Assembly (NCBI GenBank): GCA_965659955.1
Contig: CBFHYA010000004.1
Span: forward strand, 19,364-62,368
Direction: 5' to 3'
DNA: 43,005 nt
Source of the DNA: Candidatus Izemoplasmataceae bacterium
Lineage (GTDB): Bacteria > Bacillota_I > Bacilli_A > Izemoplasmatales > Izemoplasmataceae
Shown here: one piece after another, positions 14,651 to 39,180 of the stretch
Layout of the letters: each line of letters starts with the position of its first letter
How positions within the stretch are numbered: the first letter of the stretch is position 1
Made by a program: the position numbers and the translations under genes
Notes under the pieces: model-generated
The model's database searches: none
Seen by the model: the letters and a program-made list of their open reading frames with translations, nothing else
What the model was told of the DNA's origin: nothing

Positions 14651-14959
14651 TTATGCGCCTTGAACCCATTTTAAGAGCTGTTCTTTGGGCATGAAGCCCG
14701 CTTTGCGATCGGCCACTTGACCGTCTTTCATCACAAAGAGTGTGGGGATGGCACGCACTTCATGTTGTTGTGCCACGGCCATGTTTTCATCCACATTGAG
14801 TTTCACGATTTTAATATCGTCATGTTCCCCGGCAATTTCTTCTAAAACAGGGGCAATCATTTTACAGGGGCCACACCAGTCGGCATAAAAGTCAACGATT
14901 ACGGTGCCACTGCTTGTATCTTTTTCAAACGATGCTTCACTCGAATATACGATGGGCAT
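14651..14959 (-). CDS. trxA: Thioredoxin
   Basis: 102 aa with the WCGPC active site and a typical thioredoxin fold sequence. Confidence 0.94.
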   Translation of the reverse strand: MPIVYSSEASFEKDTSSGTVIVDFYADWCGPCKMIAPVLEEIAGEHDDIKIVKLNVDENMAVAQQHEVRAIPTLFVMKDGQVADRKAGFMPKEQLLKWVQGA

Positions 14960-35314: not shown

Positions 35315-36118
35315 TTACGCTTCCACGTAACCTTGTTCTTCAGAGAGCCATGTGGATGAAACATTAAGCATAACTCCATAGAAGATTTTGGAAGTAACGT
35401 CGGCGATGGTGTAAAGCACTTGCTGTGCGACAATCGCTAAAGCGGCAACTTCGGAAGCTGAGCCACCGAATAAAGGCATAATGTACGCCACTGGATAAAT
35501 GGTCCATGAGACATAGAATAAAGGTAAGATGGCGGCGAAGAGTGGTTCTGCTTTGCTGCCTTTCATGTTGGCACGGCCTTCTTTGATAACTTGTGTGATA
35601 AGAACTAATACCCAAATGTAGAAGAGGGTTGAAATAACACCCCATACGATCCACATAGTGATATCAGTTTCAGCGCCACGACCTGGTTCATAGAACTGAC
35701 CAATATAACCAGTAATGATCATGAGTGATCCACTGGCAGTAAAGCGCACTAAATATTTCTTAAATGCGGCACCCGCAATTCCAGCTACGAAAAGAATTTG
35801 GATGAGAAGATGAGGGACATCAATCAACCAGTTCAGGTAACGGAAACCGTTGGTGAAAGTACTTTCGCCAGAAGCGACGTATTGGCCGCCTTCTAGGACG
35901 AATGCATCAGCCCAACTTTGGGATTGTAAGAATAAGAGTAAGAACGCTGATACCATAACGACACCACTAAGTACACTCGATGGGCGATATTTAGGTGCGT
36001 TATTTTTGATGGTTAATACGAAATAAAGAAGTGCTGCACCCATAGCAGCAAATCCAAAGGTTAAAACATGTTGCACAACTTCAAATTGCCATACTGCTAA
36101 GCTGCTTAAACCTGTCAT
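35315..36118 (-). CDS. Microbial (type-1) rhodopsin with the NDQ motif, a predicted light-driven Na+ pump (NaR/KR2-like)
   Basis: 7-TM protein. Helix C reads FRYLNWLIDVPHLLIQILFV, giving N, D and Q at the three functional positions. Helix G reads YTIADVTSKIFYGV, with the retinal Schiff-base Lys and counterion Asp. Long identities to KR2 as recalled: LLYF.LTIKN, VVMVSAFLLL, MIITGYIGQFYE. The AAGGAGG RBS is 4 nt before the ATG at 36118, and the ORF-track start at 36169 has no RBS. Confidence 0.93.
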   Translation of the reverse strand: MTGLSSLAVWQFEVVQHVLTFGFAAMGAALLYFVLTIKNNAPKYRPSSVLSGVVMVSAFLLLFLQSQSWADAFVLEGGQYVASGESTFTNGFRYLNWLIDVPHLLIQILFVAGIAGAAFKKYLVRFTASGSLMIITGYIGQFYEPGRGAETDITMWIVWGVISTLFYIWVLVLITQVIKEGRANMKGSKAEPLFAAILPLFYVSWTIYPVAYIMPLFGGSASEVAALAIVAQQVLYTIADVTSKIFYGVMLNVSSTWLSEEQGYVEA

Positions 36119-36152
36119 TTGTTCCTCCTTGATATAATATAAAGATACATTT

Positions 36153-36181
36153 ATTGTACTCCTATCCATTAAACATTACAA
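36153..36181 (-). promoter_or_regulatory. Sigma-A-type promoter of the rhodopsin gene (TTGTAA - 17 nt - TACAAT)
   Basis: The RC of 36176-36181 is TTGTAA and the RC of 36153-36158 is TACAAT, with exact 17-nt spacing. This predicts a leader of about 28 nt. Confidence 0.5.
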
Positions 36182-36274: not shown

Positions 36275-37111
36275 TTACTCCGATTGGTTGGTCTCACGAA
36301 GTGCTTCGAGTTCTTCTTTGAATTGTCTGAACTGTTCAATCAGCTGATCTTTTAATTCTTCGCGAGATTCCGGGGGCACAATATCACCAGCTTCGACCGC
36401 TGCTTCATATTCAGCGATGCGTGCTTCGACAAGTGCTTTAATTTCGTCTTTGATTAAAGAGGCTTCTTCTTCACGTTCAGCTCTATACGCATCAATGCGT
36501 GATTGGAAATTGGCTTGTAAATTTTCTCTAAGCACTTCTGGATCGGTTGCTAAGGCAGCTTCAAAAGTAAGTGTCTCATCGTTTTGCATAGCAGCGCGAA
36601 TCAAAATAATTTGGCCGACCGAAACATCATTGGCTTCGGCTTGTTCACGTATGTCTTCATAGTATTCTGCACCATTTTCCACGGCGGCTTGAATGCCACT
36701 GGTACTTAAGTGCTCGGCAATTTTCGCTTGCACTTCGTTTTGGAAAGCCTCATATCCTGCTTCCGCTTCTTGCGTAATGGTGATCACAACGACATTATCG
36801 GTGCGGGTGACATCGACGTAGCCGGTTTCAATGGCAGCATCTAGGAACAGTGCTAATGCGTCATCATATGTTAACCCGATAAAGGTTAAGTCAGCTGCCA
36901 CGATTTCGGCATCTTCATTCGAGAGAACATATCCGGTAATCACACCGTCTTCGTCCAGGGTGAATGTAATGGATGGATTTATGTCCACTGTAATAAATGT
37001 GGAGGCGTCTTGGGGATCATACGTGGGAGTTTCATTGGATAAGGTGGGTTCTGCACAGGCAGCTAAAAAGAAAACGGTTAAAAGTGTGAATGCTAAAATT
37101 AGTTTTTTCAT
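36275..37111 (-). CDS. Acidic lipoprotein of unknown function (N-terminal beta-rich part, C-terminal Glu/Ala-rich helical part)
   Basis: Signal peptide MKKLILAFTLLTVFFLAAC with a lipobox. The start at 37111 has an AAAGGA RBS, whereas the upstream Met codons of the ORF track do not. No catalytic motif is present. Confidence 0.6.
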   Translation of the reverse strand: MKKLILAFTLLTVFFLAACAEPTLSNETPTYDPQDASTFITVDINPSITFTLDEDGVITGYVLSNEDAEIVAADLTFIGLTYDDALALFLDAAIETGYVDVTRTDNVVVITITQEAEAGYEAFQNEVQAKIAEHLSTSGIQAAVENGAEYYEDIREQAEANDVSVGQIILIRAAMQNDETLTFEAALATDPEVLRENLQANFQSRIDAYRAEREEEASLIKDEIKALVEARIAEYEAAVEAGDIVPPESREELKDQLIEQFRQFKEELEALRETNQSE

Positions 37112-37196
37112 AAGTATCCTTTCTTTCATCTTTATTATATGCCTCTCTGTCATAGACTTCAAGTAAATGACTCTGAGATAACTGGAGGTTTTACAG

Positions 37197-37225
37197 TTGC
37201 AATTATATACCCTATGGGGTATAAT
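37197..37225 (+). promoter_or_regulatory. Promoter of the csoR-like/reductase operon (TTGCAA - 17 nt - TATAAT)
   Basis: -35 at 37197-37202 and -10 at 37220-37225 with exact 17-nt spacing. The ATG at 37255 is preceded by a TAGGAG RBS. Confidence 0.55.
37207..37222. promoter_or_regulatory. CsoR-type operator: inverted repeat ATACCC-TATG-GGGTAT overlapping the -10 region
   Basis: Perfect 6-bp arms with a 4-nt spacer. This matches the G/C-tract-in-AT-context operators (ATACCC...GGGTAT) recalled for the CsoR family. It lies inside the spacer/-10 of the promoter of the adjacent CsoR-family gene. Confidence 0.6.
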
Positions 37226-37254
37226 TACAATGGTTAAACTTTAGGAGAAACATT

Positions 37255-37506
37255 ATGATATGTGACCAAAATGTTAAAAATCGTATTAAGCGAGCGCAAG
37301 GCCAAATGAGCGGCGTTTTAAATATGATGGAAAATAATCTTGCCTGTGAAGATATTATTACACAACTCAAAGCCATTCGGTCGAGTATTGATAAAGCGAT
37401 TGGCGTGCTGACTGCGGATAATATTTTGCAAGCACTCGATTTTGAATCGGACCTAGATAAAGAGACGCTTCAAGAAGCCCTCAATTTAGTCATCAAAGGC
37501 CGGTAG
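37255..37506 (+). CDS. CsoR/RcnR/FrmR (DUF156) family transcriptional repressor
   Basis: 83 aa with the family signature RIKRAQGQ..GV..M.E....CEDI..Q..A....I. Confidence 0.85.
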   Translation: MICDQNVKNRIKRAQGQMSGVLNMMENNLACEDIITQLKAIRSSIDKAIGVLTADNILQALDFESDLDKETLQEALNLVIKGR

Positions 37507-37518
37507 AAAGGAGATACT

Positions 37519-38487
37519 ATGTTTGATTTTGCCGTGGAAGCAAAGTCCGAAAAATCACTTTTTGAATCGCAAAAACATTTCGATTTTGCGGTCATTGGGG
37601 GCGGCCCAGCGGGCATGAATGCCGCGCTTTATGCCATCCGTAAAGGTTTATCGGTGGCTGTCTTCTCTTTAGAAATAGGCGGACAACTTCACAACACCAG
37701 TGAAGTAGACAATTATATAGGGATTGAAAATACCACCGGCGGGAAGCTATCTGAAGCATTCCACCATCATGTGTTAGAACTTGGTGTACCCATTAAAACT
37801 GGGCACCTTGTCACAAAACTGGAAAAACCCGATGATTTTCACATTACCTTAGATAACAATGAGGTTTATACAGCCAAGACCGTCCTTTATGCAACGGGCG
37901 GTGCGCCAAGGAAACTCGGGGTTCCAGGTGAGGAAGAATTCGCGAATAAAGGGGTATCATATTGCACCACGTGTGATGCACCCTTCTTCAAAAACGAACA
38001 CGTCATTGTGGCGGGTGGAGGCAATAGTGCTGCTGAATCCGTCGTTGACCTCGCGGCATGGGCGTCCAAAATTACGGTGGTTCACCGGTCTCAGTGGCGG
38101 GCCGATCAGATCATACTTGATCAGTTCAAAAACATTGAGGGACTGGAAATCAATTTAGAAACCCAGATTTTAGAAATTTTTGGAGATACGAAAATGCGGG
38201 GGGTCAGAGTCCTAGACAAACCTTCGGGTGAAGAACGTGTCATTGAAGCCGATGGGATGTTTGTGGAAATCGGTAATATCCCCAAAAGCGCGTTACTGAA
38301 AGGCCTTGTTGACTTAAACGAACAAGGCGAAGTGATCGTATCACGCGATCAAGAAACGTCACTCCCTGGCCTCTATGCAGCTGGTGATGTTACCACACAA
38401 CCGTATAAACAAATCATTATTTCTGCCTCGGAAGGTGCCGTTGCGGCCCTGGCAGCGACCCAATATTTAATGCATCATAAAAATTAA
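37519..38487 (+). CDS. Thioredoxin-reductase-fold flavoprotein disulfide reductase, AhpF C-terminal-module-like
   Basis: FAD motif VIGGGPAGMNAA, redox CTTC (YCTTCDAPFF), NAD(P)H motif VAGGGNSAAE, and C-terminal AAGDVT..PYKQIIIS..EGA.AAL closely resembling AhpF. Confidence 0.88.
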   Translation: MFDFAVEAKSEKSLFESQKHFDFAVIGGGPAGMNAALYAIRKGLSVAVFSLEIGGQLHNTSEVDNYIGIENTTGGKLSEAFHHHVLELGVPIKTGHLVTKLEKPDDFHITLDNNEVYTAKTVLYATGGAPRKLGVPGEEEFANKGVSYCTTCDAPFFKNEHVIVAGGGNSAAESVVDLAAWASKITVVHRSQWRADQIILDQFKNIEGLEINLETQILEIFGDTKMRGVRVLDKPSGEERVIEADGMFVEIGNIPKSALLKGLVDLNEQGEVIVSRDQETSLPGLYAAGDVTTQPYKQIIISASEGAVAALAATQYLMHHKN

Positions 38488-38497
38488 GGAGATAAAC

Positions 38498-39142
38498 ATG
38501 GAAAAATTATTGAATGAAGAAGTCACCAAACAAGTTAAAGAATATTTAAACCCGATGCAAGAATCAGTAACAATGGTTCTTTTCACCCAAGAAGGCGCCT
38601 GTAATACGTGCCAAGAAACGCGTCAGCTTTTAAGTGAAGTTGCCGCCCTCACTGACAAACTCACTTTAGTCGAAAAAGATCTCAATAAAGACGCCGCTCT
38701 CGCCGAAGAATACGGCGTGACTATGACCCCAAGTTTTGTCATGCTTGATAAAGATGACACTTACAAAGGCGTCAAATTTAATGGTATCCCAGCTGGTCAT
38801 GAAATCAACTCATTCTTATCGGCCTTGATGGATATGTCCGGCATTGACTTTGGTTTGGCTGAAACCATCGGCAATCGTTTAGATAAACTGGATAAACCCG
38901 TTAACATTAAAGTCTTTGTGACATTATCTTGCCCGCATTGCCCGGGGGCGGTATCCAATGCCCACCGTTTAGCGATGAGCCATCCACACATTGAAAGTGA
39001 AATGATCGAAGCGCAAACCTTTGGGGAGCTTTCCCAAAAATTCAATGTTTCCGGCGTCCCCAAAATCATCATCAACGATGAACACGAACTGGTCGGCAAT
39101 CAACCCATCCAAGAATACTTAAAAACCATCGAAGCCTTGTAA
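38498..39142 (+). CDS. Two-thioredoxin-fold protein disulfide oxidoreductase (PDO / glutaredoxin-like; AhpF N-terminal-domain-like) with two CxxC sites
   Basis: 214 aa with a first fold carrying CNTC and a second carrying CPHC. FNGIPAGHEINSF and TLSCPHCP align with the AhpF NTD blocks (F.G.P.GHEF.S; SLSC.NCP). Confidence 0.8.
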   Translation: MEKLLNEEVTKQVKEYLNPMQESVTMVLFTQEGACNTCQETRQLLSEVAALTDKLTLVEKDLNKDAALAEEYGVTMTPSFVMLDKDDTYKGVKFNGIPAGHEINSFLSALMDMSGIDFGLAETIGNRLDKLDKPVNIKVFVTLSCPHCPGAVSNAHRLAMSHPHIESEMIEAQTFGELSQKFNVSGVPKIIINDEHELVGNQPIQEYLKTIEAL

Positions 39143-39150
39143 TTCATCTA

Positions 39151-39177
39151 AACCACCCTCATTGGGTGGTTTTTTTT
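39151..39177 (+). terminator. Rho-independent terminator of the reductase operon
   Basis: Stem AACCACCC/GGGTGGTT with a 5-nt loop, followed by a T8 run. Confidence 0.75.
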
Positions 39178-39180
39178 AGC

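Follow-up and report, generated by a model that had tools for sequence, protein, structure and literature searches.

The window, which is the whole stretch of 43,005 nucleotides that was analysed, belongs to a genome assembly (G000) that is 77% complete. Inspection of the letters and open reading frames between positions 37197 and 39177 of the window revealed a promoter, a perfect operator, three closely packed genes and a terminator (Table 1), and the elements of the operon in the original prediction, that is the three genes, the operator and their coordinates, were all located where it had placed them. The gaps between the three open reading frames are 12 and 10 nt and each gap contains a Shine-Dalgarno sequence.

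Table 1. Features of the three-gene operon in the window
Feature	Positions	Strand	Details
Predicted sigma-70-type promoter	37197..37225	+	TTGCAA 37197-37202, 17-nt spacer, TATAAT 37220-37225; 10/12 consensus matches
Operator, perfect inverted repeat ATACCC-TATG-GGGTAT (ATACCCTATGGGGTAT)	37207..37222		Spans the spacer and the first three bases of the -10 box
Putative mirror-image promoter-like site, TTGTAA-17-TATAAT	37202..37230	-	Consensus match alone; shares the palindrome and faces the lipoprotein gene 36275-37162
83-aa CstR-like CsoR-family repressor	37255..37506	+	PF02583; Cys3, Cys31, Asn56, Ala60, zero His
322-aa low-Mr thioredoxin-reductase-like flavoprotein	37519..38487	+	Pyr_redox_2; redox CxxC is CTTC; HRSQWRA instead of HRRxxxRA
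214-aa protein disulfide oxidoreductase (PDO), two thioredoxin folds	38498..39142	+	TIGR02187; CNTC N-terminal, CPHC C-terminal
Intrinsic terminator	about 39150..39178	+	9-bp stem, 5-nt loop, T-run

The product of the second gene gave its best score, 329.9 bits, on the C-terminal half of the AhpF model TIGR03140 (cut-off 502.9), and on the thioredoxin reductase (TrxR) model TIGR01292 it scored 304.1 bits, which is below the cut-off of 343.45. The TrxB paralogue on contig C5 passed TIGR01292 with 346.6 bits and has the pyridine-nucleotide motif HRREGFRA; the corresponding motif in the reductase of the operon, HRSQWRA, is conserved, and in being without the full HRRD NADPH motif this reductase is like the NADH-preferring T. 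maritima enzyme (PMC5627308). Canonical trxA and trxB are encoded elsewhere in the genome and therefore the operon pair is an accessory system. The third gene product had been described as PDO-like with a second CxxC and this was confirmed, as it scored 244 bits on TIGR02187 (equivalog cut-off 185), the family with two thioredoxin folds and a CxxC in each half, and both CNTC and CPHC are conserved in 52 members of the PDO family.

The PDO also scored 114.8 bits against the N-terminal region of AhpF (model positions 1-196 of TIGR03140). On TIGR03143, the model for the reverse-order AhpF homologue, the scores were 233.2 bits for the reductase and 164.4 bits for the PDO (cut-off 687.65), and the two proteins are collinear, in gene order, with this model, the PDO lying on its C-terminal half. 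Among the PDB matches of the two proteins are AhpF and the thioredoxin-fold domain of E. faecalis AhpF; for the PDO they include 1J08, 1A8L and AhpF as well as 5H29 and 6IL7 from E. faecalis. It had been proposed that the pair is an AhpF cut in two with its halves in swapped order. The part of this proposal that stands is the homology of both proteins to AhpF halves; the order, however, is not novel because both proteins are collinear with TIGR03143. Thus, as in AhpF and its reverse-order homologues (TIGR03140, TIGR03143, F. nucleatum FN1984, E. faecalis 5H29/6IL7), there is a reductase that matches the AhpF reductase half best and a PDO homologous to the double-thioredoxin domain, in the TIGR03143 order of reductase and then thioredoxin folds, but unlike in AhpF these are two polypeptides from separate open reading frames, each below the cut-offs of the single-polypeptide models, the first CxxC, lost in AhpF, is still present in the PDO, and no ahpC is adjacent in 51 other loci or detectable in the genome.

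The PDO family works with a separate TrxR in thermophiles. Like the systems of Pyrococcus (1A8L/1J08), Aquifex (2AYT) and Thermotoga (TrxR and a Grx-like protein), the operon has a TIGR02187 protein with both CxxC motifs beside a low-Mr TrxR-type flavoprotein; unlike these systems, it occurs in a mesophilic, wall-less host, its reductase and PDO supplement canonical TrxA/TrxB, and a dedicated CstR-type repressor controls the pair. We found no description in the literature of thermophile PDO/TrxR systems under the control of a CstR-type repressor, and thioredoxin goes unmentioned in the paper on the Izemoplasma isolate.

The regulator scored 62.4 bits on PF02583 (cut-off 22.8) and thus belongs to the CsoR/RcnR superfamily. 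It has exactly two cysteines, Cys3 and Cys31, and no histidines. At the CsoR ligand positions X, Y and Z it carries Cys31, Asn56 and Ala60, with Ala30 preceding Cys31, and so the x-C-H-C ligand set of Cu(I)-sensing CsoRs, in which a Tyr comes before the Cys, is absent. The original prediction of a CsoR-family protein without metal ligands is therefore upheld. What the regulator has instead is the attacking Cys of CstR together with an Asn where copper CsoRs have their His ligand. Neither Cys31 nor Asn56 varies among 38 aligned relatives, and the two residues align to C30 and N55 of SpCstR, the CstR of S. pneumoniae, Asn56 being the counterpart of the CstR wedge residue Asn55. SpCstR (7MQ1/2/3) is also the closest solved relative by sequence, with an E-value of 5e-12 vs about 1e-6 for copper CsoRs, and the closest by fold is again CstR, the Foldseek matches being CstR, FrmR, CsoR and InrS. 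CstR, known from S. aureus and, as SSN cluster 10, from E. faecalis, S. mitis and S. pneumoniae (7MQ1-3; PMC8643695), is thus the best sequence and fold match, and the likeness extends to the three-helix protomer, the attacking Cys that opens helix 2 and the TACCC-N4-GGGTA-type operator. The regulator differs from CstR in that helix 2 has no resolving Cys at its C-terminal end (x-C-x-C), position 60 being Ala, and in that it has a conserved Cys3 in its N-terminal tail. In the AF2 monomer model (pLDDT 86) the helices span residues 5-26, 31-64 and 69-82, which puts Cys3 in the tail preceding helix 1 and makes Cys31 the first residue of helix 2.

In the antiparallel dimer of the CsoR family, helix 1 of one protomer begins next to the point where helix 2 of the other begins, and in RcnR, FrmR and InrS N-terminal residues are used together with Cys35'. 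For the regulator a similar sensory site can be proposed, made of an N-terminal residue and the helix-2 Cys of the partner protomer. The earlier suggestion that Cys3 lies in the region used by RcnR/FrmR-type sensors needs correction: the regulator is four residues shorter in its N-terminal region, and so Cys3 does not occupy the position of RcnR His3 or FrmR Pro2. The N-terminus reads M-I-C-D, and Pro2, His3, His60 and His64 are all lacking; residue 2 is variable and bulky among the relatives. The NCBIfam scores are far under the cut-offs, at 29 vs 175 for RicR, 24.8 vs 138 for RcnR and 24.6 vs 133 for FrmR. By its residues, then, the regulator is most likely a thiol-based, non-copper sensor of the CsoR family, in agreement with the original prediction, and of the inducers suggested there persulfide is the best supported.

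When relatives of the regulator from about 80 genomes were placed in a tree, the sequences that have Cys3 and are without Cys60 formed one clade of 62 rows with support of 99/96, made up of Mycoplasmatota and Erysipelothrix. Position 60 is never Cys across this clade, being Ala, Thr and others. Its sister group consists of the classical Cys31/Cys60 CstRs of rhodanese/CoA-persulfide-reductase (CoAPR) operons, and in an Enterococcus subclade Cys3, Cys31 and Cys60 are all present. From this pattern Cys3 appears to behave as a substitute for CstR Cys60. It has been reported that in SSN cluster 10 the N-terminal Cys is the sole invariant one and that DNA release by its CstRs depends on C30 and less on C59 (PMC8643695). 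The CstR network paper has no mention of Cys3, Mollicutes or thioredoxin.

In Acholeplasma oculi, A. laidlawii and Erysipelothrix the Cys3-clade members are found at the end of rhodanese-CoAPR-rhodanese operons, and the TACCC-N4-GGGTA box is also found upstream of these operons in both Acholeplasma species. The cst-like operon that sulfide induces in E. faecalis and S. mitis is laid out in this way (PMC8643695). Since relatives with Cys3 and Cys31 sit in such operons, the sensor type is tied to reactive-sulfur genes, and these same-clade regulators control sulfide/persulfide genes as CstR does. In G000 and the 51 other reductase-PDO loci, however, no control of rhodanese, CoAPR, CstB or SQR genes was found; here, unlike CstR, the regulator is encoded first in the operon and its targets are the TrxR-like reductase and the PDO, not sulfurtransferases, CoAPR, persulfide dioxygenase or SQR. 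The order regulator, reductase, PDO is kept in all 51 loci, as are the CxxC of the reductase and the two CxxC motifs of the PDO, and there is no additional conserved operon partner, the commonest neighbour cluster occurring in 7 of them. We also considered that CoAPR and the reductase-PDO pair might be mutually exclusive, but this was ruled out as both occur in three genomes (G004, G005 and G001). The CoAPR promoters of these three genomes are without the operator and therefore the pair is not demonstrably co-regulated with known reactive-sulfur genes. The best explanation is that the three-gene module is a self-contained, autoregulated stress unit of Izemoplasmatales and Acholeplasmataceae.

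The perfect ATACCC-N4-GGGTAT operator across the spacer and the start of the -10 box had been predicted, and it is present and conserved at orthologous promoters. In searches with up to two mismatches, 30 of 100 shuffles gave at least two matches, and a lone 16-mer is thus not significant on count alone. In nearly all of about 55 other genomes (about 50 loci) the gene for the orthologous regulator is preceded, at a distance of 24-65 nt, by the TACCC-N4-GGGTA box. When G000 and ten relatives were searched genome-wide for a wider regulon, there was usually one promoter-located copy per genome, at the regulator promoter, and essentially no second one; the additional perfect copies were intragenic or at an rpsD promoter and were as frequent as those of a reversed-pattern control. 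On contig C2 of G000 an imperfect, suggestive palindrome, TACCCTTTAGGGATA, lies upstream of a rhodanese lipoprotein gene.

The operon probably switches on an extra disulfide- and persulfide-reducing system under reactive-sulfur or oxidative stress. We give somewhat better than an even chance to the reading that the regulator is a reactive-sulfur (or oxidant) dithiol switch that drives an inducible disulfide/persulfide reductase. The repressor, as a CstR-type tetramer, would bind ATACCC-N4-GGGTAT over the -10 region and block transcription, so that the operon would be autoregulated. Sensing would be by thiols and not by metal: Cys31 would attack persulfides, polysulfides or other thiol oxidants, after which a di-, tri- or tetrasulfide would connect it with Cys3' of the other protomer's N-terminal tail. 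The part of the usual resolving Cys60' would thereby fall to Cys3', and the bridge would lower the affinity for DNA and derepress the operon. Electrons would then pass from NAD(P)H through FAD and the CxxC of the TrxR-like protein to the CPHC (and the CxxC) of the PDO and on to oxidised or persulfidated thiols of proteins and small molecules; the pair would reduce disulfides as well as persulfides, with H2S released from the latter, and it probably re-reduces the sensor too, which would close a feedback loop. We infer the inducer from ancestry, and the specificity could have moved to general oxidants after the sensor was rewired to a thioredoxin-type system.

That last point leads to the alternative that the signal is general oxidative or disulfide stress (O2, H2O2, HOCl, photo-oxidation) and that a Cys3-Cys31' disulfide derepresses an inducible thioredoxin-like system for the repair of oxidised proteins, which would also supply thiol peroxidases, the GPx-family enzyme for example, with electrons. 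The regulated genes are indeed classical disulfide-reductase components, and no co-regulated reactive-sulfur gene was found in the operon-bearing genomes. The DNA sequencing runs that carry the locus are of marine plankton and saltern origin, the samples being oxic and sunlit, whilst no RNA run was found to carry it, and the host genome encodes a light-driven rhodopsin; such a habitat favours oxidative stress as the signal. The genome has a GPx-family peroxidase but no peroxiredoxin (Prx): a PF00578 (AhpC-TSA) search of the 77%-complete assembly gave nothing above the cut-off and returned solely the GPx-family protein, just under it, and thioredoxin. CstRs moreover react in vitro with H2O2, GSSG and disulfide-inducing electrophiles (PMC8643695). 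Against this, the same Cys3/Cys31/Asn56 sensor controls the rhodanese/CoAPR operons of Acholeplasma and Erysipelothrix, validated persulfide sensors are the neighbours of the entire clade in the tree, and anoxic, sulfidic sediments are the source of many relatives that carry the operon (record titles; PMC8397711). We hold a purely oxidative signal to be possible but clearly less probable than the reactive-sulfur (or oxidant) switch. If oxidants are the signal, the operon would be a new compact oxidative-stress regulon in a lineage without OxyR/PerR-type circuits at the locus.

The reactive-sulfur reading can be carried further, though tentatively, with a likelihood we rate no higher than that of the oxidative signal. 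The pair may be an NAD(P)H-dependent persulfide/polysulfide reductase, a 'depersulfidase', that occupies the regulatory slot of the cst operon in wall-less Bacilli; the resolving Cys may have migrated from position 60 to position 3, with the three-Cys Enterococcus proteins as the surviving intermediate, and the PDO may re-reduce the polysulfide bridge in the sensor, so that three genes would make up a closed circuit of sensing, response and reset. CstR-type sensors are the best-understood bacterial persulfide switches and their chemistry is explained via the Cys31/Cys60' pair. A large natural clade that keeps the attacking Cys and the wedge Asn, with the partner Cys moved to the N-terminal tail, is a natural test of how the geometry of the site affects reactivity and specificity in the CstR family. 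The link between a reactive-sulfur-type sensor and a TrxR/PDO pair in more than 50 species-level genomes also suggests an inducible thioredoxin-type route of persulfide and disulfide reduction in free-living relatives of Mollicutes, and it gives mesophilic bacterial PDOs a defined regulatory context, PDOs having hitherto been studied chiefly in hyperthermophiles.

It is also conceivable, but improbable, that the reductase and the PDO form a split AhpF-type peroxiredoxin reductase that recycles an unlinked peroxiredoxin or thiol peroxidase. This would fit the AhpF and TIGR03143 matches of both proteins and the AhpF structures among their PDB matches, and fused reverse-order AhpF enzymes have been described that adjoin ahpC in other bacteria (PMC12288474). 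Several sister genomes do have Prx genes, but these are far from the operon, and the two nearest relatives of G000 are, like G000 itself, without a Prx above the cut-off. The original prediction had noted that no peroxiredoxin gene is nearby, and this is true of the locus, of all 51 other loci (0/51 with an adjacent peroxiredoxin or ahpC) and of the whole 77%-complete genome. As the 51 loci show no conserved neighbour and no peroxiredoxin, a role in reducing AhpC is without syntenic support. In addition, the PDO passes the PDO model and not the AhpF model and keeps the N-terminal CxxC absent from AhpF, and the regulator is of the reactive-sulfur type, unlike the peroxide sensors PerR and OxyR.

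That the regulator senses Cu(I) or Ni/Co through Cys3 and Cys31, or aldehydes in the manner of FrmR, is very unlikely: it could be argued from the Pfam name of PF02583, 'metal-sensitive repressor', from the weak NCBIfam matches to RicR, RcnR and FrmR, from the CopA of G000, a 77%-complete assembly in which no second CsoR-family gene was found, and from the few loci in which the operon lies beside copZA, but the protein has no His and has Asn and Ala at Y and Z, those NCBIfam matches are far under their cut-offs, there is no Pro2 for FrmR-type chemistry, and the regulated genes, the reductase and the PDO in 51 loci in place of the copA/copZ of Cu(I)-sensing CsoRs, serve neither metal efflux nor formaldehyde detoxification. 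The sister genomes carry a separate canonical x-C-H-C CsoR (Y-C...H-x3-C) adjoining copZA and therefore a copper role is unlikely for the regulator of the operon. copZA is adjacent to the operon, and divergent from it, in only 5 of the 51 loci, and a copper role by this adjacency was rejected because copZA has its own canonical CsoR there. In locus L029, the one inspected, a separate and differently spaced palindrome lies upstream of copZ.

The source genome is a metagenome-assembled genome (G000) of 0.9 Mb that is 77% complete, the window being contig C4:19364-62368 of it; by the names of its homologues it belongs to the Izemoplasmatales, a wall-less group of Bacilli. Metagenomes from marine plankton, seawater and salterns contain the same DNA. 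When ORFs, promoter and palindrome were checked, all the genes and the operator at 37197-39177 were located and the original prediction had described them accurately (see the table). One 16-mer palindrome alone is statistically unremarkable; the operator is remarkable because it is conserved across related loci, nearly all of which have TACCC-N4-GGGTA 24-65 nt 5' of the regulator orthologue, with essentially one promoter-located copy per genome (G000 and ten relatives). A mirror-image promoter-like site overlaps the operator palindrome and faces the gene of a lipoprotein in which an RsgI_M domain was recognised (PF23750, 78 bits) and, because of this overlap, the repressor might, judging from the sequence, govern both directions from the common palindrome. 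The five closest relatives alone have this lipoprotein conserved upstream of the operon. Roughly 1 kb 5' of the operon lies the gene of a microbial rhodopsin, whose motif is NDQ (RYLNWLIDVPHLLIQ). Elsewhere in G000, an operator-like but imperfect palindrome, TACCCTTTAGGGATA, runs across an extended -10, TGATAAAAT, immediately 5' of the gene for a 134-aa lipoprotein rhodanese (PF00581), and the regulator may have a weak second target there.

Features of the operon, its surroundings and the compared loci (window coordinates unless a contig or locus is named)
Feature	Location	Strand	Remark
Regulator ORF	37255-37506	+	first of three head-to-tail ORFs, own Shine-Dalgarno
Reductase ORF	37519-38487	+	second ORF, 12-nt gap before, own Shine-Dalgarno
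PDO ORF	38498-39142	+	third ORF, 10-nt gap before, own Shine-Dalgarno
Promoter	TTGCAA 37197-37202, TATAAT 37220-37225	+	17-nt spacer, upstream of the three ORFs
Operator	37207-37222		perfect palindrome ATACCC-TATG-GGGTAT, extends into -10 box
Terminator	39150-39172	+	3' of the three ORFs
Mirror promoter-like site	37202-37230	-	TTGTAA-17-TATAAT
RsgI_M-domain lipoprotein	36275-37162	-	
Microbial rhodopsin	35315-36169	-	
Canonical trxA	14651-14959		
Operator-like site and rhodanese	G000 contig C2: 71988-72427		
F/YGC-x-x-CV membrane protein	L001 570-1067 (G000 contig C14)		adjoins GPx-family peroxidase in G000
F/YGC-x-x-CV membrane protein	L074 5332-5826		
F/YGC-x-x-CV membrane protein	L051 3491-3961		
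Broken CoAPR gene	L082 4072-5704		A. laidlawii strain 8195
copZA side with own palindrome	L029 5624-6000		

The regulator matched PF02583, and its scores against the RicR, RcnR and FrmR models were far under the cut-offs. It contains two Cys residues, Cys3 and Cys31, and no His, and in the family's W-X-Y-Z scheme it has Cys31 at X, Asn56 at Y and Ala60 at Z. Its top solved relative by sequence was the persulfide sensor CstR of S. pneumoniae (7MQ1-3, E 5e-12), with copper CsoRs, InrS and FrmR ranking behind at ~1e-6 or weaker, and the same CstR entries were again at the top when the AF2 model of the monomer (pLDDT 86; helices 5-26, 31-64 and 69-82) was searched with Foldseek, FrmR (5LBM) being among the fold matches. 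Cys31 and Asn56 are invariant among relatives and align with the attacking Cys30/31 and the 'wedge' Asn55 of CstR, respectively. The lack of His, the presence of Asn56 and Ala60 at Y and Z, and the kinship to CstR indicate that a non-metal thiol sensor had been rightly proposed; among the thiol, persulfide, aldehyde or oxidant signals then listed, persulfide is the best supported and aldehyde is very improbable. The AF2 model puts Cys3 in a tail of four residues that precedes helix 1, and helix 2 begins with Cys31. In antiparallel CsoR-family dimers the helix 1 start and helix 2 end of one protomer flank the helix 2 start of its partner, and because of this layout RcnR, InrS and FrmR pair N-terminal residues with Cys35' of the other protomer, so that by analogy Cys3' could take the place of Cys60' in pairing with Cys31. 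Ahead of the Cys at position X the regulator has four residues fewer than FrmR and RcnR, as seen from the model alignment offsets, and therefore positional equivalence of Cys3 to Pro2 of FrmR or His3 of RcnR was rejected. In SSN cluster 10 the N-terminal Cys alone is reported to be invariant, and DNA release to require C30 and, to a lesser degree, C59 (PMC8643695); that paper makes no mention of Cys3, Mollicutes or thioredoxin-type targets.

When species-representative genomes were scanned, 80 loci were obtained, in which regulator positions 3, 31, 56 and 60 and the neighbouring genes were scored. Cys3, Cys31 and Asn56 without Cys60 were found in 62 rows, which form a single clade (support 99/96) of Mycoplasmatota and Erysipelothrix. 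The sister group (Carnobacteriaceae, Bacillaceae and others) has Tyr3, Cys31, Asn56 and Cys60, the classical CstR pattern, and within it is an Enterococcus subclade of CoAPR-operon CstRs (L060, L062, L075, L077, L078) with Cys3, Cys31 and Cys60, which may be evolutionarily intermediate between the classical sensor and the Cys3-only one. A cross-check by exhaustive profile search, counted as 50%-identity clusters, agreed with this pattern: Cys3 without Cys60 accounted for ~14 clusters and Cys3 with Cys60 for two or three, the majority being x-C-N-C. The window's order of regulator, reductase and PDO was found in 51 other loci, which share no further conserved neighbour, the most frequent one being present in 7. 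What emerges is a CstR clade whose second cysteine is relocated and which is rewired to a TrxR-like/PDO module in more than 50 species-level genomes, and we know of no description of a CstR-type repressor over such a pair. The sampled Lactobacillales regulators of the sister group (Enterococcus, Alkalibacterium, Jeotgalibaca) come last in operons of rhodanese, CoAPR (CoA-persulfide reductase, a CoA-disulfide-reductase-rhodanese) and rhodanese, an arrangement characterised in E. faecalis and S. mitis as the cst-like operon that sulfide induces (PMC8643695). This operon type also houses the Cys3-only regulators of Acholeplasma oculi, A. laidlawii and Erysipelothrix, with a TACCC-N4-GGGTA box 5' of it in both Acholeplasma species, and part of the sensor's own clade thus links Cys3/Cys31 to reactive-sulfur genes. 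In A. laidlawii strain 8195 the regulator-containing operon has its CoAPR gene broken into two ORFs that differ in frame (95 and 421 aa), which may be a frameshift or a pseudogene. Thiol and sulfur genes are repeatedly accompanied by a membrane protein of ~160 aa that has no Pfam family and a conserved F/YGC-x-x-CV motif; it lies between reductase and regulator in an Acholeplasma MAG and 5' of CoAPR in A. oculi.

The PDO scored over the TIGR02187 equivalog cut-off (244 vs 185 bits) and matched Pyrococcus PDOs, an Aquifex protein, AhpF N-terminal domains and the thioredoxin-fold domain of E. faecalis AhpF, of which 5H29 and 6IL7 are crystal structures. Both its CxxC motifs are kept in 52 orthologues, CPHC being invariant and the inner residues of the N-terminal motif varying. 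A low-Mr flavoprotein of TrxR type with a conserved CxxC (CTTC/CATC), the reductase scored highest against the reductase half of AhpF (329.9 bits) and stayed under the cut-off of the TrxB equivalog model (304.1 vs 343.45). Its conserved HRSxWRA replaces the 2'-phosphate-binding HRRxxxRA (PMC5627308), which suggests a changed NADH/NADPH preference. G000 has a canonical trxB on contig C5 (346.6 bits, HRREGFRA) and a canonical trxA, and therefore the operon is an accessory system. The pair had been taken for a split AhpF with its halves swapped; the homology to AhpF parts stands, but the third gene passes the PDO model and the two proteins, taken in gene order, are collinear with TIGR03143, a model of AhpF homologues in which the reductase precedes the thioredoxin folds. 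Separate pairs of PDO and TrxR are a known arrangement of hyperthermophiles and Thermotoga. Reverse-order fused enzymes have been described in F. nucleatum (PMC12288474), and so, with both arrangements known, the enzymology is of a known kind.

The favoured and fairly probable explanation is that reactive sulfur would act on a dithiol switch of Cys31 and Cys3' and derepress the operon, whereupon the NAD(P)H-driven reductase-PDO chain would reduce persulfidated or oxidised thiols and probably also reset the sensor. It is possible, with clearly less probability, that the same circuit answers general oxidative or disulfide stress; such a signal suits the oxic, sunlit habitat of the host and the kind of genes regulated, as well as the lack of co-regulated reactive-sulfur genes, CoAPR promoters being without the operator in genomes holding both systems, while the CoAPR operons of the Cys3 clade speak for reactive sulfur. 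It is doubtful that the pair is a peroxiredoxin reductase, a role compatible with oxidative stress, and nothing supports AhpC reduction by it: no peroxiredoxin adjoins the operon in any of the 51 loci, in agreement with the earlier remark that none was nearby, and none scored above the cut-off in G000 and its two nearest relatives, where a GPx-family peroxidase only was found. That the regulator senses a metal or an aldehyde is very improbable, and a copper role is disfavoured, as it has no His, has Asn and Ala at the Y and Z ligand positions, and canonical CsoR is separately encoded with copZA in relatives.

Most related genomes encode, besides the CstR-like regulator, another member of the CsoR family that has the canonical Tyr-Cys...His-x3-Cys signature, the same CsoR/CstR division of labour that S. 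aureus is known for. In the 77%-complete G000 the CstR-like gene is the sole CsoR-family gene seen, and CopA is present without the operator. In five loci of one Izemoplasmatales subclade (L008, L028, L029, L033, L035) copZA divergently adjoins the operon and canonical CsoR is encoded with it in a copZ-copA-csoR operon; in L029, the one locus inspected, copZ has its own GC-rich palindrome, TACCCC-N7-GGGGGGTA, with a spacing unlike that of the operon operator. The regulators of L028, L029 and L035 have an additional Cys at position 27.
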